DNA from: a virus
Reading direction: 5' to 3' (one strand)
Virus record (IMG/VR): IMGVR_UViG_3300032307_000369
Coordinates: 30,875 to 94,874 of that record
DNA: 64,000 nucleotides
Shown here in pieces: positions 3,616-58,300 of this stretch (position 1 is the stretch's first letter; each line of letters starts with the position of its first letter). The translations under genes were made by a program, and so were the position numbers. The notes beneath the pieces are model-generated. The model saw nothing but the letters and a program-made list of their open reading frames with translations. It was not told the DNA's origin and did not search any database.

Positions 3616-5505
3616 ATGTCAAAGATCATCGGTATCGACCTCGGTACAACAAATTCATGCGTAGCCGTTATAGAGAACGGAATCCCCAAAGTTATTGAAA
3701 ACAGCGAAGGTGCTAGAACAACACCATCAATTGTTGCCTATGCCAATAACGAAATCTTAGTAGGTGCTAGCGCCAAACGTCAAGCAGTTACTAATCCTAA
3801 AAATACAATCTATGCTAGTAAGCGTCTAATTGGACGCAAGTTTGAAGAGCAGGCTGTACAAAAAGACATTGACCTAATGCCTTACAAAATTGTTCGTGCA
3901 GACAACGGTGATGCTTGGATTGAAGCTAACAACGACAAACTTGCACCCCCACAAATCTCCGCTGAAGTTCTTCGCAAAATGAAGAAAACTGCTGAAGATT
4001 ACTTGGGCGAAACAGTTACTCAAGCAGTTATCACAGTACCAGCATACTTCAACGATAGTCAACGTCAAGCTACTAAGGATGCAGGTAAGATTGCAGGTTT
4101 AGAAGTATCGCGTATTATTAACGAACCAACTGCGGCTGCTCTTAGCTACGGTGTTGATAAGACTGACAAAGCTGATAGAAAAATTGCTGTTTATGACCTT
4201 GGTGGTGGAACATTTGATGTCAGCATTATTGACATTGCTGATGTTGATGGTGACAAACAAATTGAAGTACTGAGCACTAACGGAGACACGTTCTTGGGTG
4301 GTGAAGACTTTGACCAACGCATCATGGACTACTTAGTTGATGAGTTTAAGAAAGAACAAGGTGTTGACCTTAAGAAAGACATGTTGGCACTACAACGCTT
4401 AAAAGAAGCCAGTGAAAAAGCCAAGATTGAACTATCAAGCAGTGCGCAAACAGATGTAAACTTGCCTTACATTACAGCAGATGCAAGCGGACCTAGACAC
4501 ATGGCAATTAAATTGACTCGTGCTAAATTTGAGTCAATGGTTGAAGATTTGATTCAGCGCAGTTTAGATCCATGCCGTCAAGCTATGAAAGATGCAGGCG
4601 TGACAGCTAGCGACATTGACGAAGTTATTTTGGTTGGTGGTCAAACCCGTATGCCTAAGGTGCAAGAAGAAGTTGAAAAACTTTTTGGTAAGGCTCCACG
4701 TCGTGATGTAAATCCTGACGAAGCTGTTGCAGTTGGTGCGGCAATTCAAGGCGCTGTTCTAGGTGGTGATCGTAAAGACGTATTGCTATTAGACGTAACT
4801 CCTTTGAGTCTTGGTATTGAGACACTGGGTGGTGTGATGACCAAGATCATTCAAAAGAACACAACTATCCCAACTAAAGGACAACAAACTTTCTCTACAG
4901 CAGAAGATAATCAACCAGCTGTGACAATCAAGGTGTTCCAAGGCGAACGTGAACTTTGTCAGCATAATAAAATGTTAGGTGAATTTAATCTTGAAGGTAT
5001 TGCTCCAGCACGTCGTGGTCAGCCACAGATTGAAGTTACTTTTGACATTGATGCTAACGGCATTATGAACATTAGTGCTAAAGACAAATCAACTGGCAAA
5101 GAAAACAAGATCACTATTAAATCTGATAGCGGCTTGAGCAAAGAAGAAATTGAAAAAATGATTCAAGATGCTGAAGCAAATGCTGAGGCTGATAAGAAAG
5201 CACGTGAACTAATTGATTCTCGCAACAATGCAGAATCGCAAGTACACTCTGTTAAGAAAGACTTAACAGAATATGGTAGTAAAATTACTGAAGCTGATAA
5301 GTCTAACATAGAAACTGCTATTACACATGTAGAAGATTCTATCAAAGGCAATGATGCTGAAGTGATTACTAAATCAGTAAGTGCATTGTTTGAAGCAATG
5401 ACACCACTGATTCAAGCAAAGACTAGTACTGCTTCAGAAAGCAACAACAATAATCAAGACGATGTTGTTGATGCTCAATACACTGAAACACCTAAGTCTG
5501 AATAA
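3616..5505 (+). CDS. dnaK: molecular chaperone DnaK (Hsp70)
   Basis: SD AAAGGAG. Full-length Hsp70 signatures [18 protein letters not shown] and [11 protein letters not shown], collinear with proteobacterial DnaK from the nucleotide-binding domain to the acidic C-terminus. Confidence 0.95.
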
Positions 5506-5553
5506 GGTACCTTTAAGGGCCTAATTTGATTCTTACTTTAAAAGGAGATTATC

Positions 5554-5988
5554 ATGAATCAACTAAGAACTATAGATGCAGATACATTAACAAAAGCTCT
5601 AATTGGATTTGACACAATGTTTGATCAATTCGAACGTAGATTTTCTAATTCAATTAGCAACACTTACCCTCCTCATAATGTTATCAAAATTGATGACAAC
5701 AATTATGAGATCCAAGTGGCTGTGACTGGTTTTGGAAAAGACGAAGTCACTGTTGAACTTGATCAAAATGTATTAATTGTGACTGCTGGTAGAGATGTTG
5801 CAGAAGATGAAAAGACATATCTACACCGAGGACTTGCACAACGCAATTTTGTTCGCAACTTCCCGCTTGCTGAACATATTGAGGTTAAAGGTGCAGAACA
5901 AAAGAATGGCATCTTGTCAATTAGACTAGAACGCCTTGTTCCAGAAGCACTCAAGCCACGTCGAATTAATATCACGTATTCAGAGTAA
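5554..5988 (+). CDS. small heat-shock protein, Hsp20/alpha-crystallin family (IbpA-like)
   Basis: SD AAAGGAG. Alpha-crystallin domain architecture (…YEIQVAVTGFGKDEVTVELDQNVLIVTAG…, GILSIRL). Followed by a terminator. Confidence 0.8.
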   Translation: MNQLRTIDADTLTKALIGFDTMFDQFERRFSNSISNTYPPHNVIKIDDNNYEIQVAVTGFGKDEVTVELDQNVLIVTAGRDVAEDEKTYLHRGLAQRNFVRNFPLAEHIEVKGAEQKNGILSIRLERLVPEALKPRRINITYSE

Positions 5989-5992
5989 TTGG

Positions 5993-6025
5993 CAAAGGGG
6001 CCACTTGTGCCCCTTTGTTATTTGT
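5993..6025 (+). terminator. rho-independent terminator
   Basis: CAAAGGGGC-cacttgt-GCCCCTTTG followed by TTATTTGT. Confidence 0.65.
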
Positions 6026-6060
6026 AGTATAATAAGTAAAAATAATATTTAGGAAATTAA

Positions 6061-6363
6061 ATGGGTGAAATTGCTACCAAACAAAAAAGTCTAGTAACTA
6101 CAGATCTAATTGAACCTAGAAAGTTCAAAGTGATCTTCTTCAATGATGACAAAACTCCAATGGACTTTGTTATAGATTTGCTAATCAACTTGTTTAACCA
6201 TGATCAAACTAGTAGCAGTAAATTAACAATGGAAATTCATCATGAAGGCTCAGCAGTGGTTGGTGTTTATCCTTATGAAATAGCCGAGCAAAAAGGAATT
6301 GAATCCACACACATTGCACGACAAGCAGGATACCCATTACTAATTAAAGTTGAATCGGAGTAA
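6061..6363 (+). CDS. clpS: ATP-dependent Clp protease adaptor ClpS
   Basis: ClpS core KVIFFNDDKTPMDFVIDLL…HHEGSAVVGVYPYEIAE, about 100 aa, with an SD upstream. Confidence 0.8.
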   Translation: MGEIATKQKSLVTTDLIEPRKFKVIFFNDDKTPMDFVIDLLINLFNHDQTSSSKLTMEIHHEGSAVVGVYPYEIAEQKGIESTHIARQAGYPLLIKVESE

Positions 6364-6365
6364 AG

Positions 6366-6911
6366 ATGAGTTTACGGGAAATTACTAAAGATCTACATCA
6401 CGAAGCAGAAACAACAAAGTTTGCTAAGATGCTACTAAGTGGTAAAATTGGCAAGGAAGATTACAGAAACTATCTGTATAACTTACTAGCAATTTACGAT
6501 CCAATTGAGTGGTACTGTAAACGTCAGGGCTTTCTTACTAACATGCCAGACCTGCCAAGACTCAAGTCTATCTATGCAGATTTTACAGAATTAGATGAGT
6601 GCGGATATTACTACCTAACTCCTGCTACATTAGAATATCAAACATACTTACATAAACTAGGCAATGATCCAGAACGTAAACATCTTGTTAAGGCGCATTT
6701 ATATTGCCGCCATATGGGCGACCTATTCGGTGGCCAAATCATTAAGAAGCAAGTAGCACATATTTCAAGTGGTAAGTTTTACGACTTTGAAAATGCTGAT
6801 GCTATGAAGATGGCTATTCGTGAAACACTTACAGATGACTTGGGTGACGAAGCTCGGGTGGCATTTGAATTTGCTATTAAAATGATGCGTGATCTCTATG
6901 CCGGAGAGTAA
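6366..6911 (+). CDS. heme oxygenase (short HO family)
   Basis: LREITKDLHHEAE…, LYCRHMGDLFGGQIIKK matches the HO proximal and distal helix motifs (RYLGDLSGGQ). The start is coupled to the clpS stop. Confidence 0.7.
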   Translation: MSLREITKDLHHEAETTKFAKMLLSGKIGKEDYRNYLYNLLAIYDPIEWYCKRQGFLTNMPDLPRLKSIYADFTELDECGYYYLTPATLEYQTYLHKLGNDPERKHLVKAHLYCRHMGDLFGGQIIKKQVAHISSGKFYDFENADAMKMAIRETLTDDLGDEARVAFEFAIKMMRDLYAGE

Positions 6912-7584
6912 AGTATGGGACACCCTAATTGAAATCCAAGCTCTACTTGAGACGTCCTTTGAAAAAACAGGAGTCGAAGTCTTCGAGCCTGGCATGGATC
7001 GTTTTAATCAACCTGGTTGGGTTAATCGTGTATGGACTAGCGATAAGTATCGTAGGGCCCACGTTGATGTCGTCGATGCTAGGCTAACCAAAGGTCTTTG
7101 GATGATGCACTGTTGCATCTTCCCGCATACACATAATCCAGCTCCAATTTACGGCTTTGATGTTATTGCTGGTAAGAATAAAATTACTGGCTGTTTCCAC
7201 GACTATTCAAAAGCAGGTGATCCTAATCATCCCATGATGCAGTGGTTTCATGATGAAGTCAGTAAGTTAGAATGGCGCAGAGAGCGAACTTTACCTGAAT
7301 GGGCCACTAACATTTTTAGTGGTAGCATGGTTGCCGCAGGCAATGTACAAGATGAACAAGAACTAGAGCAAATTACTAATCTTGCTAAAACCACTATAGA
7401 ACACTATCTAAGCACAGTTGCTGATACTAACAATACCGTTCCTGATACTACATGGGATCAAAACTACTACGCACAGAATCAAAAATGTAACCCGCATACA
7501 CCCAGAGTTATGGTTAGTTTAGGGCTTTCAGAAGATGATGTCAAGCATTTTATACAGGAATGTCTGTTTCCAGAGATTCGATAA
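6889..7584 (+). CDS. ferredoxin-dependent bilin reductase family (PebS/PcyA/PcyX-like)
   Basis: About 230 aa directly downstream of heme oxygenase and overlapping its end. The size, acidic/aromatic composition and synteny (HO then FDBR) match phage bilin reductases. The start is GTG at 6889 or ATG at 6898. Confidence 0.5.
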   Translation: MISMPESKVWDTLIEIQALLETSFEKTGVEVFEPGMDRFNQPGWVNRVWTSDKYRRAHVDVVDARLTKGLWMMHCCIFPHTHNPAPIYGFDVIAGKNKITGCFHDYSKAGDPNHPMMQWFHDEVSKLEWRRERTLPEWATNIFSGSMVAAGNVQDEQELEQITNLAKTTIEHYLSTVADTNNTVPDTTWDQNYYAQNQKCNPHTPRVMVSLGLSEDDVKHFIQECLFPEIR

Positions 7585-7594
7585 ATAATACATT

Positions 7595-9406
7595 ATGCGT
7601 TTAGATGAATTTCAATTAGCGGGACAAGTCCCTTCAACTGTACAAAGAGCTGTTCCAGCAACGGCTCAACCCACTGCACAACCAGCAATGTCCACAACGG
7701 GCACTGGAGCAACTGAACAAGATGCAAAAAATGCTCTTATATCTCTTGTAGATAATAGTAAAGATTTGCCACCAGATTCGCCAGTTCATGAATTTGTAAA
7801 CAAGTTCTTAAATACAATCTTAACTCACATACAAGATATACCAGTTCAAGAAGCATCAAAAATGCTTCAGAATATACAAGATGCTAACTCTGAACTTCTT
7901 CAAACAATACTGTTAAATCTACAACAACTGACCCCAGAAGAATTAGCTATCGTAACTTCAGAAACCTCAGACATTAATGCAAAAGTTGAAGCAGTTAAGA
8001 AAATTGCAGATAGACTGTTAAAAACAAAGCCAGTACAAAAGGCGTTCAATAAACAAGTGGCCACTATTGAATTAGACGTTAAAGGTAATATTGGTAAACT
8101 TGACAGCGCAATTGAAAAACGAGCACAAAAATTTGCTAGAGATTTTGGACTACCATTGAAGTGGGCTAGAAACTTGATTGGTATGTTTGATGTAAACATT
8201 ACTAGAGAACAACGTGATGAATTTTTAGCCGCATGTGAAGCAGGAACTGCTCTAGATGTTGGTCAAATGATACAAGATGGTGAAGGCAAAGTTGAAGATT
8301 ACGTACTACTAACACAGCCTAAAATTAAAGAAGTATTTGACAGTGTAAAAGATACTCTATTAGACATTTCATTAAGTACAGGTCAACGTGGTGCCACAGG
8401 ACCTTTTGAGGCCATGATGGCTATCATGGGAGGTTGTAAAAAGCCTGCACCAAATGAGGGCGGAGACCTTAAAACTAAAGATGGCTTAAAACTTGAAGTT
8501 AAAGCCACTTCTATTAGTCCAAGTACAGAATCTCCAACTTCTGGAGGTAATACTAATGCATGGTTAGATTCTACTGCTGGAAAAGAAATTTCTGGATCTG
8601 CATTGAGAAAAGTGGCCAACGAATGGCTAAGAGATGTTGCTCCTGAAGCGTTAACTGATAAAAAATTCCAAACTGTTTGGAAAAAGGCTGATTTTAGATC
8701 AGGTGGGTTATCAAGTCTAAAAGAAGCACTAATAATGTTGAGAGATTTAGCTTACAAACCAGCTCCTGGCAAAAAGCTAATAACTGCCATGATGGCTGAA
8801 ATGTATCCGAACATCACAAATCTTCAAAGTGAAGGTTACGATTTTGATGCCGCTTGTATGAGAATACTGAGTGCTATTGGAAAAAGCACAGGGGACATCA
8901 AAGCAGACAAACCATTTAAAGATGCAATTGCTAAAGAGCAAGGAGTCATGGGCTTGTTAGAGTATATTAAAGGAAAAGGTAATGACGGATTTGTTTTCTT
9001 TAATAGTTCAACACAAAAATTTAAAATTGTAATTGGTGTTAAAGGTGTAATTGCAGAGTTAGGTGCTAAAGATTCTAACTTGCACTTTGATGCTCCAATG
9101 ACCATGGGCGGTTCTGCTAAGGCTAGTGCAGGCGTATATTATGGTGCAAAACCAGGAAGTCCAGAAGGCCAAGAATACTTGCAAAAATTCAACTCAAGTC
9201 CAGAAAGAGTTGAACTATATAGACAAGTACAACTGGCAAAACAAGCGGCAGCTCAAAACAAATCATTAGCCATGATTGAAGCCGCAAAAGAAGGCTTAAC
9301 AGAATTTGAGTTTGAAGGTAAAAAATATTCTGTATCTAAAGCCGCTTTAAAGAAATATTTTGAGCCTGACATCCCAATGTCTAGAACCAAAAAGAAAACC
9401 CGTTAA
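7595..9406 (+). CDS. hypothetical protein (603 aa)
   Basis: Long uninterrupted ORF with a Pro/Thr/Ala-rich N-terminus and no recognisable motif. Confidence 0.55.
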   Translation: MRLDEFQLAGQVPSTVQRAVPATAQPTAQPAMSTTGTGATEQDAKNALISLVDNSKDLPPDSPVHEFVNKFLNTILTHIQDIPVQEASKMLQNIQDANSELLQTILLNLQQLTPEELAIVTSETSDINAKVEAVKKIADRLLKTKPVQKAFNKQVATIELDVKGNIGKLDSAIEKRAQKFARDFGLPLKWARNLIGMFDVNITREQRDEFLAACEAGTALDVGQMIQDGEGKVEDYVLLTQPKIKEVFDSVKDTLLDISLSTGQRGATGPFEAMMAIMGGCKKPAPNEGGDLKTKDGLKLEVKATSISPSTESPTSGGNTNAWLDSTAGKEISGSALRKVANEWLRDVAPEALTDKKFQTVWKKADFRSGGLSSLKEALIMLRDLAYKPAPGKKLITAMMAEMYPNITNLQSEGYDFDAACMRILSAIGKSTGDIKADKPFKDAIAKEQGVMGLLEYIKGKGNDGFVFFNSSTQKFKIVIGVKGVIAELGAKDSNLHFDAPMTMGGSAKASAGVYYGAKPGSPEGQEYLQKFNSSPERVELYRQVQLAKQAAAQNKSLAMIEAAKEGLTEFEFEGKKYSVSKAALKKYFEPDIPMSRTKKKTR

Positions 9407-9480
9407 ACACTAATTCACTAAGCATTTAATTTGTTGCCAGTTCTCCGTTAAATAATAATGACGGAATTCGGAGAGCGAGC

Positions 9481-19906: not shown

Positions 19907-19981
19907 CTGGCGATAGTTCAACGGATAGAACAGTAGCCTTCTAAGCTATTAATCCAGGTTCGATTCCTGGTCGCCGGACCA
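19907..19981 (+). tRNA. tRNA-Arg (anticodon UCU)
   Basis: Cloverleaf folded by hand. Acceptor CTGGCGA/TCGCCGG, D arm GTTC/GAAC, anticodon stem GTAGC/GCTAT with loop CTTCTAA, T arm CCAGG-TTCGATT-CCTGG, discriminator A and an encoded CCA. Confidence 0.8.
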
Positions 19982-22886: not shown

Positions 22887-22971
22887 GCCTGCATGGTGAA
22901 ATAGGTAAACACAGCAGACTTAAAATCTGCCGGAGAAATCCTTCCCAGTTCGATTCTGGGTGCAGGCACCA
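22887..22971 (+). tRNA. tRNA-Leu (anticodon UAA), class II
   Basis: Acceptor GCCTGCA/TGCAGGC, 3-bp D stem GTG/CAC with GG in the loop, anticodon stem GCAGA/TCTGC with loop CTTAAAA, 13-nt variable arm, T arm CCCAG-TTCGATT-CTGGG, A73 and CCA. Confidence 0.8.
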
Positions 22972-23030: not shown

Positions 23031-23114
23031 GCGACTGTGGTGGAATGGTATACACAGCAGACTTAAAATCTGCCGCCGCAAGGATTGAGGGTTCGAGTCT
23101 CTCCAGTCGTACCA
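23031..23114 (+). tRNA. tRNA-Leu (anticodon UAA), second copy, class II
   Basis: Acceptor GCGACTG/CAGTCGT (G1:U72), D stem GTG/CAC, an anticodon arm identical to the first copy (GCAGA-CTTAAAA-TCTGC), long variable arm, T arm GAGGG-TTCGAGT-CTCTC, A73 and CCA. Confidence 0.75.
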
Positions 23115-37348: not shown

Positions 37349-37764
37349 AAATTGGATTTACATGTAGCACGTTTGATTTGTTTCATGCAGGGCATGTAAT
37401 TATGCTTGAAGAAGCAAAGAAGCAATGTGACTTTTTAATAGTAGGTTTACAAACTGACCCAACCATTGATAGACCCAATACTAAAAACAAACCGGTACAA
37501 GGTGTGTTTGAACGTTGGACCCAATTAAAGGCTTGCAAGTTTGTAGATCAAATTGTTCCATACAGTAGTGAAAAGGAATTGCTAGACCTATTGCAATCTT
37601 TTCCTATTGATGTTAGAATAATAGGTGAGGAATACAAAGACAAATCTTTTACTGGTGATCATTTAGATATGGATTACCATTTTAATGAAAGACGACATAG
37701 TTTTAGTACAACAGAATTGCGCCAACGTGTGGTTGATGCAGAAAATAAAAAGGAAATAAAATGA
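37345..37764 (+). CDS. cytidylyltransferase (TagD / RfaE-domain-II-like nucleotidyltransferase)
   Basis: [15 protein letters not shown] is the HxGH motif of the CTP:glycerol-3-phosphate cytidylyltransferase family. Confidence 0.65.
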
Positions 37765-38381
37765 GTTTAGTCCCAATGGTAGTTGAAAAAAGTAATCAAG
37801 GTGAACGAGCCTATGACATTTATAGTCGATTACTCAAAGACCGTGTTATATTTTTGAACGGCGAAGTAGAAGATTACATGGCAAATGTAATTATTGCACA
37901 ACTACTATTCTTAGAAAGTGAGAATAGTGATTTGGATATTCACTTGTACATCAATAGTCCAGGCGGTAGCGTGAGTGCCGGTCTTGCAATTTATGACACT
38001 ATGCAGTTCATCAAACCAGATGTATGTACGTATGTCATGGGTCAAGCCTGTAGTATGGGCAGTTTCCTAGCACAAGCGGGTGCTCCTGGCAAACGAGTAG
38101 TACTTCCAGAATCACGCACAATGATTCACCGTGTGAGCTCAGGTACACGCGGTACAAGTGGTAGTATTCACGTACAAGACTTGCAATTTGAAGATGCTAA
38201 ACGTAGTTTTGAAGAAGCACAACGTATCAACAAACGTCTAACAGAATTGTATGTACGTCATAATACAGTGGGCAAAACATACGAAGAGCTATTTGAAACT
38301 ATGAAGTTTGATACTTTCTTGAGTGCCGCTGAAGCTGTTGCCAATGGTCTTGCTGATCAAGTGATTGCAAAACGTCCTTGA
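37761..38381 (+). CDS. clpP: ATP-dependent Clp protease proteolytic subunit ClpP
   Basis: Collinear with bacterial ClpP. Ser ([10 protein letters not shown]), His (MIHRVSSG) and Asp triad present, plus INSPGGSV. Confidence 0.9.
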
Positions 38382-42551: not shown

Positions 42552-42598
42552 AATGAATGTGGGCCACGAACTACAATAACAATAAGGTTCAATTAGTT

Positions 42599-43324
42599 AT
42601 GTTAAAAATTACAAATCTCTCCGTCAATTACGACGTTATTCCAATTTTGGAAGATATCAATTTAGAAATCAACGAAGGCGAAATTCACGCTATTCTAGGA
42701 CCAACAGGATCTGGAAAAAGTTCCTTGGCAAGTACAATAGCTGGTAAAACAGACCTCAGTGTTGTTAAAGGAAAAATAAACTTTAAAAGAAAATCTTTGA
42801 ACAGTTTAAATCCAAATGAAAGAAGTAAGTTAGGAATTTTTACAACCTTTCAAGAACCTCCTGAAATTAATGGGATCACAAATTTAAATTTAACCAGACA
42901 AATTTTAAATGCTCGTAATGACAAAAGATCATCAACTGACATTATTAATGATTACAAAAGTTTAATAAAACAATTTGATCTAGGAAGCGAATGGTCCAAT
43001 CGAGATTATAACGTAGGAGCAAGTGCAGGCGAAAAAAAGAAAAATGAAATTGTACAGTTACACATGCTCAATCCATCTCTTACAATTTTAGACGATATTG
43101 ACAGTGGTTTAGACTTAGACACACTAACCGAAGTATTTAAAAGTTTAAAAACTTTCCTATCACAAAAAGGAAAGGCAGCTATCATTATCACACATCAACC
43201 AACGATCCTTGAAGCAATCGAGCCCACCCATGTGCATGTTATCATAGATGGAAGAATCGTAGAGTCAGGTGATAAGAAACTAATTAAAAGGATCATTTCA
43301 AATGGCTATCGAGAGTTTTCTTAA
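42599..43324 (+). CDS. sufC: Fe-S cluster assembly ATPase SufC
   Basis: ATG 42599 with AAGG upstream. Walker A GPTGSGKSS, ABC signature and Walker B (LNPSLTILDDIDSGLD). About 240 aa, typical SufC size. Confidence 0.8.
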   Translation: MLKITNLSVNYDVIPILEDINLEINEGEIHAILGPTGSGKSSLASTIAGKTDLSVVKGKINFKRKSLNSLNPNERSKLGIFTTFQEPPEINGITNLNLTRQILNARNDKRSSTDIINDYKSLIKQFDLGSEWSNRDYNVGASAGEKKKNEIVQLHMLNPSLTILDDIDSGLDLDTLTEVFKSLKTFLSQKGKAAIIITHQPTILEAIEPTHVHVIIDGRIVESGDKKLIKRIISNGYREFS

Positions 43325-44126
43325 AGTTGATTCACAAGACCCAGATTGGTCAAACAGTCCCACTCAGTACTTTGGTAAAAAATTTAAGGTCATTGATGCA
43401 AATTGCTTAATGATAAAAGAAAATACTGATGACTTAATGGTTCTACGTATGAACCCAACTGAGTCAGATTTGCTGTGTAAAAATTTGCAAGTTCTTGGAA
43501 AAGATAGTAGTAGATTAGATTTGTTTATTTTATGTGACGGATCTAAAAATACTCAACAGGTTTTTATTTACAATGTAACTGCTGAGCCAGATTCAATTAT
43601 TAATATTGGAATTTTTGTTAAGGACGGAAAACTTAATAAGCATATTTTTGAATGTGAACTTTATGAGAATTCTGTTATTAACATTTTTGGTCTTGCAGAA
43701 AACGAAGTTGGTGGCAGTAGTGAAATCATAAGCAAAGTTTACCATGCAGGTCCTTGTGCAGAGAGCAACACATTTGTAAACAGTATTGCTGGAAAAAATA
43801 GTCGAACTGTTTTTCAAGGCATTGTCAAAATTGAAGAAGACATGATAGACAGTGTTGCCAGTGTAACTAACACTAGTATTACATGTGATGAAACTGCCCA
43901 AGCATTTAGTACTCCGCAAATGATAATTGATTGTGGACAAGTGAGAGCATATCATAACTGTGAAGTCAACACTGTTGACGAAAATAACATATGGTATTTA
44001 GAAAGCAGGGGAATTGATAGAAGTAGTGCTGAAACTCTATTAAAAACGTTGCATCAAGATAGTGTGTTGGACCTTGTTGAATATCAAGACATTAGAGATG
44101 AACTCAAAGATTTTTTCCAAAGTTAA
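43302..44126 (+). CDS. sufD: SufD/SufB-family Fe-S assembly protein
   Basis: C-terminal beta-helix region …CGQVRAYHNCEVNTVDENNIWYLESRGIDRSSAETLL resembles the SufBD core (Y..SRGI). Shorter than typical SufB. Confidence 0.55.
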   Translation: MAIESFLKVDSQDPDWSNSPTQYFGKKFKVIDANCLMIKENTDDLMVLRMNPTESDLLCKNLQVLGKDSSRLDLFILCDGSKNTQQVFIYNVTAEPDSIINIGIFVKDGKLNKHIFECELYENSVINIFGLAENEVGGSSEIISKVYHAGPCAESNTFVNSIAGKNSRTVFQGIVKIEEDMIDSVASVTNTSITCDETAQAFSTPQMIIDCGQVRAYHNCEVNTVDENNIWYLESRGIDRSSAETLLKTLHQDSVLDLVEYQDIRDELKDFFQS

Positions 44127-45246
44127 AAGCGATTTTACTTTACCAGACAAAACATACTTAAACAGTGCATCACAAACTTTAATTCCTAATCAAGTAAAAA
44201 ATTCCTACCTTGATATTTGTAATAAAATTGATGCAAGGAAAGAGTATGAAAATGTTAGACAAAAAGTAAAACTACTAATTAATTCTAAAAAAGATAATGA
44301 AGTAGTTTTTACTCAAGGCAACAATCATAGCATTAATATGATTGCCAAAAGTATTTGTCATAAATGGCATTCAAATGATTGTGTAATTGTTCCTGAAAGT
44401 GAGCATCATGCCAATTTACTCATTTGGCAATACATGTCAATTGAATACGGTTTTAGATTTGAAACTGTAAATGTTATCAAAGACGGCAGCATGGATCTTG
44501 GTCATCTTGAAGACTTGCTAGACAGTTGTGATGGTAAAATATTGTTCAGCATGAGTCACATATCCAACAGCATTGGATATGTACAGCCTGTTAAGAGTAT
44601 TTTTGACAAGGTTAAAGAGTATGACGGAATAACTCTACTAGATGCAAGTTTGAGCATTGGTAGAGAATTGATAGATGTGCAAGAGTTTAATATTGATTTT
44701 CTAACATTTACTGGTCATAAATTTTATGGTCCAACTGGTGTTGGTATATTATATGGCAAGCAAAAATATTTAGACAAGTTAGAGCCTACTATATTAGGCG
44801 ACAGTAATAGCACATTATTACCATGGAAATTAGAAATTGGTAAACCTAATATTGCAAGTGTAGTTATGTTAGGTTCAGCAATTGATTGGTTTACATCATA
44901 TGATTTAGAAAGTTTTCATACCTACGATAAACTTATGAATGCAAATTTTCAAATGATGTTAAATGAATTAGACTTTGTAGAAATATTTCATCCTGGTTAT
45001 TATAAGGGAGGATTAATTGGATTTAATCTACATGGACACCATCCTGCGTATGTGGGTGAATTTTTGTCTAATGAAGGTATTGTATTAAAATATGGACATT
45101 TGAATGCAAGACCTATTGTAGAAGAAAAGTTCCCAAATGGTATACTTAGATTAAGTTGGGCCTGCTATAATACTAAAGAAGACGTTGAACAATTAAGGCA
45201 AGGACTTATAAAATTCTACGATAAATATAGTTCTAAAAGGACATAA
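44098..45246 (+). CDS. sufS: cysteine desulfurase SufS (class V aminotransferase)
   Basis: FTGHKFYGPTGVGILYG carries the PLP-lysine motif. The N-terminus DFTLPDKTYLNSASQ resembles SufS DFP…YLDSAATS. The ATG at 44098 overlaps the sufD end. Confidence 0.7.
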   Translation: MNSKIFSKVKSDFTLPDKTYLNSASQTLIPNQVKNSYLDICNKIDARKEYENVRQKVKLLINSKKDNEVVFTQGNNHSINMIAKSICHKWHSNDCVIVPESEHHANLLIWQYMSIEYGFRFETVNVIKDGSMDLGHLEDLLDSCDGKILFSMSHISNSIGYVQPVKSIFDKVKEYDGITLLDASLSIGRELIDVQEFNIDFLTFTGHKFYGPTGVGILYGKQKYLDKLEPTILGDSNSTLLPWKLEIGKPNIASVVMLGSAIDWFTSYDLESFHTYDKLMNANFQMMLNELDFVEIFHPGYYKGGLIGFNLHGHHPAYVGEFLSNEGIVLKYGHLNARPIVEEKFPNGILRLSWACYNTKEDVEQLRQGLIKFYDKYSSKRT

Positions 45247-45249
45247 AAT

Positions 45250-45639
45250 ATGGCTTATTCTTCACAAGTAATTGATCATTATGAAAACCCTAGAAACGTA
45301 GGTTCATTTGATAAAAATGATAATGATGTTGGAACTGGTATGGTTGGAGCTCCTGCTTGTGGTGACGTTATGAAATTGCAAATTAAAGTTAATGAACAAG
45401 GTATTATTGAAGATGCAAAGTTTAAAACTTATGGGTGTGGTAGTGCTATTGCTAGTTCTAGTCTTGTCACCGAGTGGCTCAAGGGCAAGAACTTGGATGA
45501 GGCACAAGCCATTAAGAACTCAGATATCGCTACTGAACTTGCGTTACCGCCCGTTAAGATTCACTGTTCAATATTAGCAGAAGATGCTATCAAAGCCGCA
45601 GTAGCAGATTATAAAGCTAAACATGATAACACTATCTGA
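45250..45639 (+). CDS. iscU: Fe-S cluster scaffold IscU/SufU-like
   Basis: Three conserved Cys in the contexts [17 protein letters not shown] and HCS. Begins [17 protein letters not shown]. Confidence 0.8.
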
Positions 45640-45943
45640 ACAAGCTGCCAATAGGGTAAAAGCAACTCTAGAAAAGCGTGGTAAAGGACTAGGGATTAGA
45701 TTAGGGGTCAAAACTACAGGTTGTAGTGGCATGGCCTATATGATAGAATTTGTAGATACTCCTACCACTGATGATATGAGCTTTGTTAGTTACGGAGTTC
45801 ATGTGTTTGTAGATCCAAAAAGTTTAGCATACCTTGATGGTGTACAAGTGGAATGGGTTAAGAAAGGTCTTAATGAAGGCTTTGATTTTACCAATCCTAA
45901 CGAACGTGATCGTTGTGGTTGCGGGGAAAGTTTTAGAGTTTAA
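45623..45943 (+). CDS. A-type Fe-S carrier (IscA/SufA/ErpA)
   Basis: [16 protein letters not shown] and the C-terminal CGCGESF form the three-Cys A-type carrier signature. Confidence 0.8.
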
Positions 45944-46227: not shown

Positions 46228-46308
46228 GCCATTATTTACATTAAGTTTATAAAACTATAAGGTAAATAAAGTGGACAGTTGGTATATCACCCAAATTTGG
46301 AGTTAATA

Positions 46309-49300
46309 ATGGCAAGAAAAGACGTTAATATTGGTTTAACAGGTAACGATGGAACAGGTGACAGCATACGTGATGCGTTTTCCAAAGTTAATGCAAATTT
46401 CCAAGAACTTTACGCTAGTCAAGGTCTAGAGGCCGGACTAACATTTGATAACTTAGTTGACGTTATCAAACCACTTAGACCTAACACAGTTTTAGGCTTA
46501 GACAGCTTAGGAAAAACTATTGTTAGTAGAGATTTAGAAGCGGCTGTTGGTATTAGTATTGACACCGTCAGTGATCCGTCTAAGATAATCTTTAGTATTG
46601 CCAACGTTCAAATTAGACAAGACCCAACACCAACACTGTCAAACGTACTAGATGGAAGTGGGTTCAAACTAAGTTTCATTGGTGATCCAGAAAATGACCA
46701 AGATGCTGTTACTAGAAAATGGGTATACCAAAATTTCTTAAACAGAGATAACATTGACAAGTTAGGTACATTTGACCTAGCCGCTGGCAGTGTCATGCGT
46801 CAAAATTTCAAGATCAGTCCAACTCCAGATAACGGCAATATTAATGCTGGTACAAAAATTATTAATGTTTTTGGTTCAGATGGCGTTACACCAAAAACTG
46901 ATGTTCAGTTAAAGTTTCAAGCAACACACCCTGCTCATGCAACTCGAAAAGATTATGTAGATACCAAGCTGTCATTACAAGGTACTGAGACATTAGATCC
47001 AGCAACTGGCTTTGTAAACAAAGGCATGGGTGTGATGACAGGTCCATTGATTTTAAATGATCACCCTGGACAGTATGTTGAAATTGATAGGAAGCCAGAT
47101 GGCACACTGTTCGTACAAGAAGATTATAGAGCAGCCACAAGAGGGTATGTTGATTCCAAAACGTATTCTGCCGCAGGTAACATATTTGTCAGTACAAAAG
47201 GTAATGACGACATGTGGGATTTTGACAACAATCGTCCAAATCCCATTTATGGATATCCTGAGGAAGAAATTGGACGTAGTTGGAGTAAAGCATTTAAATC
47301 AGTAAATGCCGCGTGTCGTTATGCAACACGAATTATAGATGCTGTTGAATTACAAAATATTCCATATCAAGTTACTCCACAACAAATTTCACGTTGGGCT
47401 CCTCCATTTACAACGCCAATTACAAGTCCAAGAACTCGTGTGCGTGTTAGCTTACAAAATCACGGATTCAAAGATGGAGACTACGTTTTAGTTAGCGGAG
47501 CTATCTTAGGATCTTTAGACACAAGAAATTTAAACGGTATTCACAGAGTTAATGCGTTAGATGTTAACAATTTTGAATTAAATTTAAAATCACTGGTAAC
47601 ATGGCCAAATCCAGAAGTTGCACCTGGCGGCACTATTAGTATTTCGTTGGCTAATAAAAAGGACGGTCCTTACAGTGAAATTTCTAAGGTTGACTTTGGC
47701 TTTAGAGGATTCTTTGTACCAAAACCTGAAATTACTATTATGGTTGAATCAGGAGTTTACTTTGAAGAAGCTCCTATGTTTGTTCCACCAAACTGTGCTA
47801 TTAAGGGCGATGAATTTAGACGTACTTTAATTAAACCAAAGCCAGGACCAGTTAATCCTGATAATCAGCTTACTAAATTTGTTCGTGGTGATAGAAGTCA
47901 AAGTGCTACCTTTTGGTATAACTCACACTACTACAATCAATTGTCAAGATCAGTTGGAACCACTAACGTGGTTGGTAGTACAAAATTAGAAATTAAAAAT
48001 AGTCCTTATAGACCAAAGAGTGGTATGCGATTTATTGTGGGTACTCTTGGTGGTATACCAAACGTATATCGAGTTGGACGTGAAGTTAACATTGTTTACA
48101 AAGAACCAAATCCAGATTTAAATATTGCTCCTGGAACATATATCATGGACATCGTTGATGACAACGGTGATCCAAAACCATTGGCAACTGGTATTCCAGA
48201 TTCAACAACTATAGAATTCTTGTTAGACCACGAACACTGTGATGCCATGCTTGTTGCTGATGCATTCCAGTTGCGTAATATAACAGTTATAGGATTTAAG
48301 GGCTTTGCTATGGCCTTTGATCCTAAGAGACAAATTAAAACACGTTCTCCTTATGCTCAAGTTGGCGCTGTATTTGCTGGAGAAGGTGGTGGTGGTCAGT
48401 TGGTTGACGGTATGTCTGGTAACCAAGTATGTTATGTATTAGACACTAGTTATACTGATCCGTTTACTGGAACACAAGGTTCTAGTGGACTTAAAATGAC
48501 TGTTACTGGATTAGTACGTACTCCTGAAACTCCAAATACATTTTTCTTGGCTAAGAAAAAATATGTCATTATCGATTCCACAACTCCAGATTCCAACGGT
48601 ACTGCTACATTAACTTTAAGTACTACAACTCCAATTGAAGTTGATGATACTTATTTGCCTGCAGGTTTTATTCCAAACGGTTCTCAAATTTTAATTGAAA
48701 CTGCTGGTAACCGATCAATGTTGTCTAACGACTTTACCATGATTAACGATTTAGGTTATGGTCTTGTGTGTGAAAATAACGGTGTTGCAGAAGCAGTTAG
48801 TCAATTTACATACTATTGCCGTGCCAGCTATTTGTCTAGATCAGGTGGACAAATTCGTTCGGTAACAGGATCAAGTTGCTATGGTATTATTGGTTTACAA
48901 TCTGAAGGTAGCGATCCTAACGAAGCTATTCAGATTGGTAGAATTAAAACTGACATTGGTAACATCATGCAGGTTTACATTGATGATCCTAGTGCAGATG
49001 GCAACCAAGGTGCCGTAAGTTTGGTAATGGGAGGTTTGGCAAGTAAGCCTATAAGAAACTCTACATTCAAATTAACCAAACACGAAATCATTATTAAAAA
49101 TATTGCTCGAGCAAGATTGAGTGGTGGTACACTAACAACTGGGCCGCTAGTTGTAACAACATATTATCCTCATCCTTTCTCAACTGGAGAGAGTGTACAA
49201 ATGACCAGTGTGAGAGGATTGCAATTGCCTGCAATTCCTCCAAGTACTACCCCAAGAGCAACTGATGTTGATGGAAGAGTTTATACTATTACTTCTGTTA

Positions 49301-52300
49301 ACAGTCACACGTTTACATTAGATGGAAGTGAAAGCACTAATTATATAAATGATTTAGGAACTTATAATTTTGCTGACTTACCAGCTCGTGCTATATCTAA
49401 TCTAGTAATTGGAGCACAAGATGTTGTGTTTTCAATTAAGGGAGATCCTAGTCCATCTAATATTACAGGTAGAGCTAGATTTGATGGCATTCCAGGCGAA
49501 AACCAAGCTGGACAAAATGTATTAAAACTTCAACGACTACAGCGTCCAGCTGTTGTTGGAATGAAAACAACTATTCCTGGCGGAGTGTTGACCTACACTG
49601 TAACTGATGTTACTGAAAAAGTAGTTACATTTAAACCATCTCCAAGACCAGCACCTACTGGTGACAATGATAATAAAATTGGTGCACAAACCATTTATAT
49701 CTACACCACTACAGATATAACTACAGGTGCTATTAATGGCACAACACTTACTGCTACTAATTTAGATCAAAATAATGTTGGACAATTAGTCACAGGAGCC
49801 ACTGTAGCTGACAACACATACATTATAGCAGTGACCAGTCCTACAACAGCGACTGTGTCAATAAGTCAAACTGTTACTAACAGAACTTTAGAATTAAGTT
49901 GGGTTCCTAAAATAGGCTGGAGTTTCCAGCATTTAGACACCAACATGGGTCTACAGTTAAATTATACTAGATATACAATTACTGATACTCCAGTATATGA
50001 TGCTGTATCAAATAGATGGGCTGTTACCTTAGATGTTCCGCTAACAGTCAATATGCAAAATCAAGAAGCAACTGGTCAAACGACTATTGTTGACGGAATT
50101 TGGGACGTTACTTTAAACTATGATTTAGAAACAAGCATCGCTAACAGTGTAAACCCAGTATCATTTACGTTTGTTGATTCGTATTGGGTTACAAGCATTG
50201 ATCCGTCATTGACCAACCCAATACCTACTGTTACTGATGAATACAATAGAGTACGTGCTCGTAAGATTAATTTATATCAGCAAAAGACAATTAGTGTAAG
50301 TCAAATTTTAAACAGACCTGCTATTATTAACAGCTCTGCTTTAAGATTCTCATCTTCAAACTATGATCCAAGTATATATCGTATTTTAGGTAAAACTTCT
50401 GATGGCGGTATTACACAAGATAGATATGCTGTTACTACTACTATAAATCCACTTAGTGGTCTTAATACGAATGCTGTAGAGAAAGTATTAGCAAACAAAA
50501 CTTGGATACAGTCTGAAGTTATTAATTACTTGGCTACAATTTATCCTAATTTCCAATACAATGTTAACACTTGTTATCGTGACGTTGGATATATTATCGA
50601 TGCAGTACTTTATGACTTAACTTACGGCGGTAACGTAAGAAGCCGTGCCGCTGGTATTAGTTATTACCAACAAGGTAATCCAAGTGCGGCTCTTGTATTA
50701 AGTCAGCAAAAAGTAGAAACAATTGATGCAATTAATTTTGCGACCACTGCGGCAATAACTGCCTTAAATCAATATAGTGGCGCAACAGTACCTCAATTAC
50801 AACTACCATATCGTGGAAGTAATTTAAACGGTGTTGCACAATTACAGGCAAATAAACTGTTTATACAAGATGAAGTTATTGCATTCTTAGCACAAACATA
50901 TCCTACTTTACAGTTCAATCAAACTACTTGTCGTAGAGACGTTGGATTGATTATTGATGCTGTTGCATACGATTTAGAGTATGGTGGTAACGTGGCAACT
51001 AGAACGGCTGCTCTAGCATACTATGATGGATCAACAAGCTCACAGTATGTGTTGTCTAATCAAAAAACCCAAACCATTGCTGCCATTAACAGAGCATCTA
51101 CAGTTGCTCAACAAATTGTTTTAGAAACTGCTGTAACTGCGACTGCTGGCAACACTGCAACACAAAATACTGCTGGTACTCCTGGAGTTGCTGGTGTTGA
51201 TGACGTAAGAGTTCAAACATTAATGAACATTATTACTAATGTTCTACAAAATGGTACTTCTGTTGCTCCAACTAGAAATTTAGGAATTAGAAGAAGTTAT
51301 CAAGATCCTCTAGGTGTAGAGTATGCCCCACAAAGTATTGACAGTGGCATTGTAGCAGAAGCCGGTGCTGCCACAGCATTGCAAGCTCTAATGGACCAAA
51401 TTGTAGCCATAATTGAATTTGGCACTACAGGCCCGCATGTTGTTGTACAGCCACAAGTGTTAGATACTTTACAGGCAATTGATTTCCCACCAACTGCAAC
51501 ATCATTACAATATGGCGCAGTATTAACTGGTCCTGGAATTCCTAAAGCAGGAGTTAACGGCGTTACCGAAGATACATTTATTAGAACAGTGACTCAATTG
51601 TTTGATGAAAATCAAAATACAATTGGCTACAGAGCTAGAATTAGTGCGCCAGTAACACAAGCAATTCCTGCTGGTACAGAAATTGTTATTACTGGTCCTG
51701 GTAGTGACTTCTTATTTGATCTAAACACTCCACTAGACCTTAGACACTTAGCAGGCGATGTAATTGGTATCACTACCACATTCTCAACTGTACGTGCAAC
51801 TGGTCATGATTTCTTAAACGTTGGGGCAGGTGGATATGATGACTCTAACTATCCTAATAACGTTTATGGTCAACCAGTTAATACGCCATCTGACAGTGCA
51901 ATTGCTAAAGAGGTTGGGACTGGTCGTGTGTTCCACGTGTCAACTGATCAAAATGGTAATTTTAGAGTAGGTAGCTTCTTTAACGTTAACCAAGGTGACG
52001 GATCTGTTAGTATTAGTGCTAAAATTGGTTTAAGTGCTGTTACAAGTTTAAGTTTCTTAACTGGTGCAACCGTTAACCAATTCTCAACTGATTCTAAGTT
52101 AGACGACAATAGTGACAACATTGTTTCTACACAAAAGGCAATGAAGACCTACATCAATAACTTGATTGACGGTCGTTTTACAATTGACAATACTGATACT
52201 CCACAACGTGGTCTATTAAGACTTGACGGCGAAAGTATCATGGTTGGTGATTTAGATGTTGGTTTGAACAGTGTTGAACGTATAGTAAACAGTCCAAACA

Positions 52301-54843: not shown

Positions 54844-54880
54844 GATATCCTAAAATAAATAAGATGAACAGGAACGAAAA

Positions 54881-57800
54881 ATGAGCATTCAATACATAAA
54901 CATTGGTTCTAACGCAAATGACGGCACTGGCGATGATTTGCGAACTGCATTTTTAAAAGTAAATGATAATTTTCAATTACTTGCAACCATAGGTGGAGAG
55001 ACCAATATTGGTGCAAACCTTGGTGGTGGCGGGGGACAAGTTTACGCAGGTAAAACTAATGAAACACTTAATTTTAGAACAATTGCTGGTGATGTTAATT
55101 CAGGCATAACCGTAAATCAGTCTGGCAATGTTATTACGATTGCTAGTAATTTTAGTGTTCCTGCATCTATTACTACACTAATATCTGAAGATAACAGTGG
55201 TCAATTTACTACTACAAGCCCAGGAGCTACTTTTAGATTCAATGGCACTGGTGGCGTTACTACTAGTTTAAATGCTAATATATTGACCATTGACGGTCAA
55301 TTTGCACTAGTGCAAGATACGTTGCCTTTACTAGGCGGTAATTTAGATTTAAATGGAAGTAATATTACTGGTTTAGGTAATATTAGTATTGTTGGCAATA
55401 TCACTTCTGATAATTTAACTGTAGGAAGAATTGTAACTCCTGGAGTGTTTCCTGCAACTGCTACAATTAACGGTTCATTAACTGTTCGAGGATCAACAAG
55501 TTTACAAGCTGTTACTGCAACTTCTATCGTTACTAACAATATTATAACTGCACCAGGATTTACAGCAACAAGTGGTGCATTTACTGGCAACCTTACTGGT
55601 AACAGCACTGGAACACACTATGGCAACGTTGCCTTAAAAGTAGTTGATCCATTAGATCCTAACTATCCTGAAATAGTTATAGTTGATTCTGATACACAAA
55701 CAATAACTGGTTCACATTTTGGTACATTTAGTGGCGGTTTGACTGGTTCACTAATTACTGGCGGTCTAGCATTAGATGGTAATAGTATTACTGGTGAAGG
55801 TAGAATTGAAGTTACTGGTTCAGAAGTGCAAACTGGCACAATGGCATTTACTGTAAATGGAAGATTCCACGGTGGTGATTCACCTGCTGGCGTTGCTCCA
55901 GAAGCTGATCAAGGACCAGAGTCTGCCATGTTCACCATGACTCAACAGGTATATGGTTTTTCAGAGCCAATTCGATTAAGAACTGTAAGTAAGAACGGAA
56001 GCAATTCAATTCCACTTGGTCCTGGTATACGATTTGAATCTGTTAATGAAATTGATCCTAGTGATCCAACAACTTATGACCCATTAAATCCGCCAACACA
56101 ACCAGAATATGTTTTACATGGTTATTTGGGAGTGTTAAACTATGATAACGGTGCTGACACAAATCCCGATATAAGTGCATTTGTAGCTAGAGTTAGATCT
56201 GACGACGGTGACTTTGTACGTGATATTATTATTGCTAGAGGTGACAATCGTGTTAGTATTTCTGGGCTTGATATAGAAGATAGTAAAATTAGTCCAAAAT
56301 ATGATGAAATAGCTTCTGGAGTTTTTGGAATAACTCCATCTGATTTGATTATTACAAACGGAGCAAGTAATCATTATATTAACTTCTATGGAGAATATGA
56401 TCCAAATTTCCAAGATGAAGGTTTTGCAACTGGACCTGGCTACACTGGATATAGTTTTCCAAAAGTAATTGGTGCTCCTGGAGAAGTATTAACTGTACAA
56501 TTAGGAACCAACTTACTAACTTGGGCCACACCAGGTGGTGGTGGCGGTGGTGGTGGAACAACTTTACTAAACTTGACTGATGTTCCAGACAGTTACGCTA
56601 CTCATGCTGGCAAACTTTTAAGAGTTAAGTCGACCAGTGACGGAATAGAATTTACAAATAGTTTTAATGCCACAGTTACTGGTAGTTTAATTGGAAATGC
56701 TAGTACAGCGACTGCCTTACAAACTGCTAGAACAATCAATGGGTTTACCTTTGATGGTACACAAGATGTAACTATTGACACTCGTCAGATTGAAGAACTA
56801 AGACAAGTAGCCTCAAATGCCAATATAGTTGGAAGTGGTGGCAGCATTGTATCAACTATAAATATTACCACCTTAGAATCTAACCTAGACGTTAATTTTG
56901 GAGAACCTTCAACTAATCAAGGTGCTAGAAAATTTAGAGTAGGCATGGACATTAAGGGAACACAGATCAGTAATCCAGTTATTACGAATATTTCATTAAC
57001 TGGTGGAACATTCCCAACTCCAAATAATGATAGAACTGTCGTTATAACAGTCACATTTGATGCACAAGTGGTCAATGCTGAGAGTAATATTACTATCACT
57101 GGTGAAGTGCAAAATCAGTGGTTTAATGATGAAAAAGTTAGATCTGTATTCAGTGTGAGCCCTGGCAGTGCATTATCGTATACAAGTTCATTGGGGCTGT
57201 TTGCACTTAATGATTCAGTATCAAATGTCAATAACACACTGGTAAGAAGAAATGGTAGTGGGCAAGTTTTCCTTGGCACTGCTTATGTTAGCACACTAAC
57301 AAAAAATAGTGCTGATACTGAAATAACTGTAACAAGTCCAATTTCTACTAATTCTAGTATAACATCATCTGCAAATATTACCACAACAGGCAGTGTTATT
57401 GCTGGGTTTATAACACTGACTGGAACAGGTAATCAAACTATTTCATCTAGTGCTGGCACTAATATTATTTTGCAACCTGGAACAAGTGTTGATTTAAGCG
57501 GTAAGAAAATAACAAATCTTTCAATTGCGGCTCCAACAGCAGACAGTGATGCGGCAAGTAAAAAATATGTTGACGATGAAATCCAAGGTTTATTTGAAGA
57601 AACTTTTCAAGAATTACCTGTATCTGGAGATACTGGTGGCACGTTAAATGTACAGCGAAGTGCAATTTTTACAGTTGCAGGTAGTTCAAATATTTCTACA
57701 TCGACCACCGGTACTGGTGTTCAAATAAATTTAAAAAATACAATTTCTGGAGTCAGTGTTAGTGGAAACTTACCAGTTACTGGAAACGTAACAAGCTCAG

Positions 57801-58297: not shown

Positions 58298-58300
58298 AAT

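Follow-up and report, generated by a model that had tools for sequence, protein, structure and literature searches.

We analysed a 64,000-nucleotide stretch of viral DNA (positions 30,875 to 94,874 of IMG/VR virus record IMGVR_UViG_3300032307_000369, numbered here from its first letter and called the window) in which a heme oxygenase (HO) gene, hemO, is followed by an overlapping gene for a ferredoxin-dependent bilin reductase (FDBR). The locus is very likely a phage hemO-pcyX auxiliary metabolic cassette, and the phage that carries it a large myophage, with a genome of at least 245 kb, whose host is not a cyanobacterium. The two genes and their overlap are as follows:

6366..6911, plus strand: hemO, compact heme oxygenase of 181 amino acids (Pfam PF01126, 2.8e-23)
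ATG 6898..7584, plus strand: pcyX-type FDBR of 228 amino acids (Pfam PF05996, PDB 5OWG, signature residues)
6898..6911, plus strand: hemO/pcyX overlap of 14 nt, read from the sequence, with the hemO stop codon TAA at 6909-6911

A preliminary description of this DNA had called the first open reading frame (ORF) a short heme oxygenase, and this was borne out. The hemO product contains HLYCRHMGDLFGGQI and matches the Pfam Heme_oxygenase profile with 83.2 bits (cut-off 23) over profile positions 6-203 of 204. Its best PDB match in a sequence search is Synechocystis HO-1 (1WE1, 1.3e-11). His11 is aligned with the proximal heme ligand His17 of 1WE1, and G118-D119-L-F-G122-G123-Q124 with the distal-helix GDLSGGQ, so that both the histidine and a GDLFGGQ-type motif are intact; His11 and the G, D, G, G and Q positions show no variation across the four phage HOs compared. 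The window HO is 30% identical to that of Pelagibacter phage Mosig, and the exact protein is present in public metagenomes, where it is annotated 'heme oxygenase'. Judged by its sequence, the first ORF is a heme oxygenase, and its product looks short yet catalytically complete.

The second ORF, of about 230 amino acids, had been taken for a bilin reductase of the PebS, PcyA or PcyX kind, with a Pfam PF05996 search and phylogenetic placement proposed as checks and the lack of an FDBR fold named as what would count against it. Both checks were run. The Fe_bilin_red profile PF05996 matched with 45.2 bits against a cut-off of 31 (1.2e-11), and PHROG 7278 'ferredoxin oxidoreductase' matched at 6.8e-20. 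A PDB sequence search gave PcyX_EBK42635 (5OWG) at E 1.2e-66 and all PcyA entries at 3e-12 or worse, and no PebS, PebA or PebB chain was matched at E<=1. Joint alignment gave the reductase identities of 50% with 5OWG, 52% with the enzyme of Mosig and 26% with PcyA of Synechocystis. An AlphaFold2 model from a shallow alignment (pLDDT 76) was searched with Foldseek, which returned 5OWG first, followed by PcyA, PebA, PebB, RCCR, HY2 and PebS; the top 36 PDB matches all belong to the FDBR superfamily. The likeness to PebS and PebA is at the level of the fold only (Foldseek E 3e-3 to 6e-3), and the reductase does not belong to the PebA/PebS lineage. The identification as a bilin reductase therefore stands, and within the family the protein sides with PcyX. 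The ORF is also open from a GTG at 6889 (231 amino acids); the form starting at ATG 6898 is the version that matches public gene calls verbatim.

The active-site residues point in the same direction. The reductase has the signature Asp57/Met69/His71/Asp88, the same four-residue pattern as 5OWG and the Mosig enzyme. Asp57, His71 and Asp88 are aligned with E76, H88 and D105 of Synechocystis PcyA, and the column of the catalytic PcyA Glu76 holds Asp57. We take the four signature residues to be D55/M67/H69/D86 in published PcyX numbers, assuming an 8-residue tag offset in the 5OWG chain. Asp55 is the residue named in the published numbering (PMC11480375). PcyX and PcyA are told apart at PcyA Glu76, which is Asp in PcyX, with the equivalents of His88 and Asp105 kept in both, and Glu76 of PcyA is needed for 18-vinyl reduction (PMC13446030, PMC10151467). 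The reductase also fails the NCBIfam PcyA equivalog NF002760, reaching 79.4 bits against a curated cut-off of 206. Together, these data indicate a predicted reductase of the PcyX type, not of the PcyA or PebS type.

A search of 1.84 billion cluster representatives returned 303 relatives of the reductase, 55 of them below 1e-30. The FDBR 90%-identity cluster has 2,090 members, and IMG/VR relatives number more than 540. The signature columns were read in 86 near-full-length representatives plus references, with the following patterns:

E-V-H-D, 29/86: PcyA-like
D-M-H-D, 18/86: includes the window protein, Mosig and 5OWG
S-M-H-D, 11/86
N-M-H-D, 6/86
K-L-H-D, 4/86
Q-M-H-D, 2/86

Further, rarer patterns occur among the 86 sequences. 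The phylogenetic placement was made as a rough neighbour-joining tree of these 86 representatives, which we used only for the question of PcyX versus PcyA because it lacks support values. The window reductase falls in the non-Glu clade beside the homologue P0241 (62% identical), apart from the twig that holds 5OWG and Mosig. Two side observations concern the wider family. Many phage PcyX-like proteins (P0243-P0305) have Ser, Asn, Lys or Gln in place of Asp at the PcyA-Glu76 position, and we found no characterisation of such proteins. Some FDBR homologues are about twice the normal size, with the FDBR domain C-terminal in P0267 (504 amino acids) and P0308 (391 amino acids) and N-terminal in P0327 (410 amino acids); these may be fusions, perhaps with HO.

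The product of the window reductase is probably phycoerythrobilin (PEB), given where the protein falls in the family. It is unlikely that the enzyme is functionally a PcyA and makes phycocyanobilin (PCB) like the FDBR of the freshwater phage CB_2, although some observations lean that way. JGI annotates the exact protein as phycocyanobilin:ferredoxin oxidoreductase, and close relatives come from lakes, among them Lake Simoncouche and Lake Grosse Fuchskuhle, the latter with a 73% identical FDBR. Regiospecificity is also reported, in Ledermann's 2018 work, not to be set by a single residue. The sole freshwater phage FDBR assayed to date, that of CB_2, is a real PcyA (PMC11480375). However, the CB_2 enzyme looked PcyX-like yet makes phycocyanobilin, which its authors attribute to a missing Asp (PMC11480375), and the window protein keeps this Asp. 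It has Asp, not Glu, at the position required for 18-vinyl reduction, it lies outside the E-V-H-D clade, and both its score of 79 bits against 206 with NF002760 and its identities to PcyX and PcyA speak against a PcyA.

Conservation of the pair was followed in the 80 best IMG/VR relatives, with FDBR identities of 69-92%. HO lies immediately 5' of PcyX in 80/80 of these loci, and because of this recurrence the pairing is far beyond chance. Both ORF ends could be located in 69 loci, and in 67 of these hemO runs into the FDBR gene by 4-62 nt, most commonly by 8, 14 or 11 nt; an overlap of exactly 14 nt is found in Mosig. Translational coupling of pcyX to the end of hemO is probable. The gene order and the overlap thus match the published cassette and Mosig, as the preliminary description had expected for hemO-pcyX pairs. 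Most sequence pairs are synonymously saturated, and the closest pairs alone were usable for dN/dS; this ratio is 0.079 and 0.062 for FDBR (two unsaturated pairs) and 0.061 for HO. Both hemO and pcyX are under strong purifying selection.

The identities of HO and FDBR are uncoupled among the relatives L008-L087: L009 has an FDBR identity of 91% with an HO identity of 46%, and L086 has 71% and 89%, respectively. The HOs of these relatives fall into roughly three identity classes, at about 40%, about 60% and about 85-90%. Because the identities are uncoupled, the data suggest that HO alleles have been swapped by recombination at the gene junction. In two marine contigs binned in metagenome-assembled genomes (MAGs), L093 (8922-9977) and L094 (8464-9974), a CN-hydrolase gene stands between hemO and pcyX and the overlap is broken; in L094 it is joined by a 2OG-Fe(II) oxygenase gene. 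We had considered alaS as the insert in these two contigs, and this was rejected on the identity of the inserted genes.

The surroundings of the pair in the window are these:

3616-5505, plus strand: dnaK (892 bits against E. coli DnaK)
5554-5988, plus strand: hsp20 (PHROG/Pfam HSP20)
5990..6020, plus strand: terminator-like hairpin with a 12-bp stem and a T-rich tail, directly 3' of hsp20 (consensus scan and sequence)
6061..6363, plus strand: clpS, Clp protease N-degron adaptor (Pfam PF02617, 1.9e-25)
7595..9406, plus strand: protein of 603 amino acids with no known function

clpS ends 2 nt ahead of hemO and the 603-amino-acid gene begins 10 nt after pcyX, which gives spacings of +2, -14 and +10 nt along clpS, hemO, pcyX and the 603-amino-acid gene; the four are probably one predicted transcription unit. 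A TATAAT-like box and an AGGA ribosome-binding site, both consensus matches, lie between the hairpin and clpS, and this arrangement suggests that clpS-hemO-pcyX opens a separate transcription unit after the hairpin. The T4 late-promoter motif TATAAATA was not enriched (3 matches against 6.3 expected). The preliminary description had the pair outside any photosynthesis cassette, which agrees with its setting between dnaK-hsp20-clpS and csgFG. It was also correct in naming clpS and a long gene of no known function as the two flanks. The placement is standard in this phage clade rather than odd, and the long gene is not a regular partner, its slot being variable. Of the 80 best loci, 78 have clpS, 77 hsp20 and 74 dnaK on the upstream side, and 53 have csgF downstream, many of the remaining contigs stopping short of it.

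The 603-amino-acid protein fits no Pfam, PHROGs or NCBIfam family and has no match among isolated phages. It has 122 metagenomic relatives, of which 0 lie within the loci of the 80 best PcyX relatives. The slot after pcyX holds 0-4 genes in relatives, in at least 3 clusters, and the window protein is tied to some of these slot genes by profile search only (e.g. E 2e-25 to L061). The gene is therefore a variable-slot occupant and not a conserved partner of the cassette. Within its family D291, E301 and K303 are invariant and resemble a PD-(D/E)xK motif; nothing points to bilin binding by this protein.

An HO gene preceded by clpS is found also in the marine contigs L090, L093 and L094. clpS is absent from Methylophilales phage Melnitz, Pelagibacter phage HTVC008M and Mosig. 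When relatives were anchored on clpS, the cassette followed it in 6/22 loci. The cassette-free clpS loci hold a Rv2179c-like exonuclease, an epimerase, a GMP reductase or genes of no known function before csgF. We looked at whether ORFs of 178 and 237 amino acids after clpS in one such locus (L113) could be a divergent HO and FDBR; this was rejected, as they are the exonuclease and the epimerase. clpS as an obligate partner of the cassette was likewise rejected in one direction, other genes standing there instead in the cassette-free loci. Because related loci carry other genes at this place, we regard the pair as accessory cargo, carried in the variable stretch that separates hsp20-clpS from csgFG. 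The cassette behaves as such cargo in that related phages lack it at the same site.

If the two proteins act as their families do, HO would bind host heme through His11 and open the ring to yield biliverdin IX-alpha, CO and Fe2+. The co-translated PcyX-type reductase would then convert biliverdin to 15,16-dihydrobiliverdin and on to phycoerythrobilin, with four electrons from a host [2Fe-2S] ferredoxin driving the reduction. In this family, PcyX makes PEB from biliverdin via 15,16-dihydrobiliverdin and phage HemO makes biliverdin IX-alpha (PMC11480375, PMC13197396, PMC13446030). We infer the reaction steps for the window proteins because of the 50% identity to PcyX plus the signature; the products, the electron donor and the purpose are likewise ones that we infer. 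As for the purpose, we tentatively prefer heme breakdown as an iron supply in the infected cell. The reductase would then mainly clear biliverdin and so keep the oxygenase turning over, and the freed iron would feed the phage's own Suf/Isc genes for iron-sulfur (Fe-S) assembly. We favour iron or heme salvage because the window also carries suf/isc genes. Two features of the window bear on this reading:

42557..45943, plus strand: Fe-S assembly module of SufC, SufB/D, a SufS-like desulfurase, IscU and IscA (Pfam ABC_tran, SUFBD_core, Aminotran_5, NifU_N at 5.2e-54, and Fe-S_biosyn)
37761..38381, plus strand: clpP protease subunit (Pfam CLP_protease, 8e-65)

Among the relatives, L002 has NifU and Fe-S_biosyn genes in the neighbourhood of its cassette, and ferrochelatase and 2OG-Fe(II) oxygenase genes adjoin the pair in Mosig, L030, L074 and L094. 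ClpP is a possible partner of the clpS product encoded beside hemO; that ClpS and ClpP assist the release of heme from host proteins is pure speculation on our part. The literature only speculates on the purpose of the cassette, with iron supply mentioned (PMC11480375). What purpose a phycobilin would serve in a host of this type, as the preliminary description asked, is a question already recognised as open (PMC11480375), and it is not new.

Several points weigh against this interpretation of the locus. The 64-kb window yielded no ferredoxin gene, and the suf/isc genes are 35 kb from the cassette. Iron release alone does not explain the strong selection on a product-specific four-electron reductase. 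The cassette is missing from 16/22 clpS-anchored relatives, and the adjacency to clpS may simply mark an insertion hotspot. In the rough tree, the nearest neighbours of the window reductase have Ser or Asn at the PcyA-Glu76 position. A 2018 FEBS J paper reportedly finds that the Asp is not the sole determinant of regiospecificity, and because of this the PEB call rests on clade membership together with the signature. The lone assayed freshwater phage enzyme, from CB_2, is a true PcyA making PCB (PMC11480375).

The selection on the reductase, beyond that on HO, can also be read as a sign that the bilin itself is used. We think it unlikely, all the same, that PEB or a derivative serves as chromophore or ligand for an unrecognised phage or host sensor, globin or regulator in a response to light or redox. 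HO and PcyA of CB_2 can load a phytochrome in E. coli (PMC11480375), bilin-binding globins accompany pre-PcyA in heterotrophs (PMC10151467), and many window ORFs have no assigned family. However, the window ORFs scanned with Pfam, which come from 64 kb out of the 245 kb or more of the genome, gave no match to a GAF, PAS, PHY, phycobilisome, globin or lyase domain. We give little weight to a more specific version, in which PEB would load a phage or host protein, possibly a fast-evolving one beside the cassette, so that an infected freshwater non-phototroph senses light or redox and times the infection. For the purpose of the cassette, iron supply remains the reading that we prefer.

The window has a GC content of 38%, and nearly all of its genes are on one strand. 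Downstream of the pair are csgF, csgG, a curlin-repeat protein, a FecR-domain protein, an F5/8-type-C protein, terC and a CHASE2-adenylate cyclase:

9458-18540: curli-type module (csgF, csgG, curlin-repeat, FecR-domain), then a CHASE2-adenylate/guanylate cyclase

The order csgF-csgG-curlin-FecR-cyclase is common to the window, Melnitz and HTVC008M, in the latter two of which the curli module has been described (PMC9004378). The CHASE2-cyclase is 50% identical to that of Melnitz and 35% to that of HTVC008M, and the N-terminal two-thirds of CsgG (residues 1-266) are 45% identical to Melnitz and 46% to HTVC008M. The window differs from these phages in an additional SH3-like domain at the C-terminus of CsgG and in the insertion of the F5/8-type-C protein and terC. 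A public 245,550-bp metagenome contig carries the exact HO, FDBR and 603-amino-acid proteins together; ENA scaffold L088 is identical over the whole neighbourhood, and related contigs reach 320-370 kb. Because of the shared curli-cyclase module and the large contigs, we assign the window to a large myophage related to Melnitz and the pelagimyophages, not to a cyanophage. A blastn search of positions 5500-9500 against isolated phages gave no match, and it was the protein-level searches that were informative.

Two further claims of the preliminary description, a proteobacterial look of DnaK and a host that is likely non-cyanobacterial, held up. DnaK is collinear with E. coli DnaK, its best match among solved Hsp70s, and shares 65-69% identity with DnaKs of gammaproteobacteria. 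OM43 and SAR11, not cyanobacteria, are the hosts of the nearest cultured phages. The host is probably Gram-negative, because the outer-membrane pair CsgG/CsgF is present. A first GTDB scan with the single FDBR protein gave no match. Repeating the scan with an alignment brought up PcyX-like genes of 48-52% identity, all of them on MAG contigs of mutually inconsistent phyla; the MAGs that include these contigs (L090-L094) are labelled Coraliomargarita, Anaerolineales, Verrucomicrobiales, Marinimicrobia (a 335-kb contig) and Rickettsiales. Their neighbouring genes are all of phage type (hsp20-clpS-HO or HO-pcyX-neck). On both grounds the MAG taxa were rejected as hosts, and the contigs are almost certainly phage contigs mis-binned in bacterial MAGs. 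The single-cell genome SCGC AAA041-L13 of an acI-A7 actinobacterium, sampled in Damariscotta Lake, includes an FDBR fragment with 65% identity to the window protein (PMC11480375 supplement, file 8); the fragment is probably from a co-sorted phage, because the phage carries genes for outer-membrane curli pores. Among the relatives' sample identifiers, one was tied to a named lake through the literature: IMG/VR sample 3300009164 (L016, 87% identity; L072) is Lake Simoncouche (PMC10960955). Marine relatives have FDBR identities of about 50% and lower GC. Since the closest relatives trace to lakes and the marine ones are at about 50%, the window is very probably from a freshwater phage.

It is very improbable that hemO and pcyX are classical cyanophage pigment genes that would supplement the phycobilisome chromophores of a cyanobacterium during infection: Kyanoviridae is the family in which the nearest cultured relatives are classed, PEB is a phycobilisome chromophore and there are weak tblastn matches (22-30% identity) to cyanophage PcyA, but the best-matching Kyanoviridae members infect SAR11 and OM43, the csgFG-fecR-cyclase module that the window shares with them was matched in no cyanophage, no photosynthesis gene was found in the 64 kb, DnaK is of the proteobacterial type, and the cyanobacterial GTDB matches are only PcyA of 22-35% identity.

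The window also holds a T4-type RNA ligase, a kinase-like AAA_33 protein and UvdE, besides clpP and the suf/isc set, together with three tRNA genes and three giant ORFs:

19907-19981: tRNA-Arg(TCT)
22887-22971: tRNA-Leu(TAA)
23031-23114: tRNA-Leu(TAA), 60 nt from the other Leu copy
46279-62542: three consecutive giant ORFs of 2854, 1138 and 1413 amino acids

The first two giant ORFs share the N-terminal motif N.G..ANDGTGD..R.AF.KVN.NF, and the giant ORFs may be tail fibres. A Cpn10/GroES gene of the identical scaffold L088 (1355-1645) falls just outside the window, on its upstream side; with DnaK, Hsp20, ClpS and ClpP it makes up a phage-borne protein-quality-control kit.

Cassettes of this kind are already published (2016, 2018, 2024), including in marine phages, in large freshwater phages and in a cultured pelagiphage. 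The use of bilins in the phycobilisome of cyanobacteria is understood. Cyanophages with ho1 and pebS (P-SSM2) or pcyA (P-SSM4 and others) follow the same logic, from heme to biliverdin to a four-electron-reduced bilin, and are T4-like; cyanophage PebS, however, is of another FDBR lineage, and cyanophage PcyA is 22-30% identical to the window protein. The vHemO-vPcyA pair (+ vAlaS) of CB_2 and the hemO-pcyA-alaS island of Bradyrhizobium ORS278 likewise combine HO with an FDBR of the AX clade and have no phycobilisome use (PMC11480375). The enzymes of CB_2 and ORS278 make PCB and lack the PcyX Asp, whereas the window protein keeps it.

Among cultured phages, Mosig (EXVC030M) alone gives a strong match (52%), and like the window it has the 14-nt overlap and is a myophage of a heterotroph. 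Its pair is flanked on one side by a series of 2OG-Fe(II) oxygenases plus ferrochelatase and on the other by neck genes, without clpS, dnaK or hsp20, and its HO is the more distant partner at 30% identity. The PhiHemO-PhiPcyX cassette of uncultured oceanic phages was reportedly described by Ledermann et al. in 2016 and 2018, with the structure in 2018. The window resembles it in having hemO followed by pcyX in overlapping ORFs, in 50% identity, in the Asp/Met/His/Asp signature and in belonging to a phage of a non-cyanobacterial host. It differs in falling in another subclade, in which P0241 (62%) is the nearest of the representatives clustered at 50% identity, in having relatives traced to lakes and in a much larger genome. 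The oceanic cassette stands alone or beside alaS or a neck gene; that of the window sits after clpS.

The closest published relatives are contigs from the peat-bog Lake Grosse Fuchskuhle (GROS21-1_SAMEA95605xx), eight in number, of 179-374 kb and GC 38-42%, each encoding AlaS besides HemO and a bilin reductase (Wegner, Roitman et al. 2024, PMC11480375). One of their FDBRs matches the window protein at 73% identity, signature included, and the contigs share with the window a similar GC, jumbo size and the presence of HemO and FDBR together. They were selected for carrying alaS elsewhere in the genome, whereas the 64-kb window is without alaS. When we tested for a hemO-pcyA/X-alaS three-gene cassette, no AlaS-like ORF was found in the window, whose sole pyridoxal phosphate enzyme is the SufS-type Aminotran_5 protein. 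It is possible that the phage has a 'broken' three-gene cassette with alaS in the other at least 180 kb of the genome.

PcyX activity has so far been found only in marine viruses (PMC11480375). Against this background, what is mildly new here is that a freshwater-type clade keeps the full PcyX signature, that the insertion site after clpS is conserved in the clade, and that an Fe-S module is on the same fragment. The window is a well-resolved example from the freshwater branch of large phages with the complete PcyX active-site signature. Its tight clpS-hemO-pcyX unit, found with clpP, dnaK, hsp20 and a complete suf/isc set on one fragment, provides handles on why phages of heterotrophs degrade heme.

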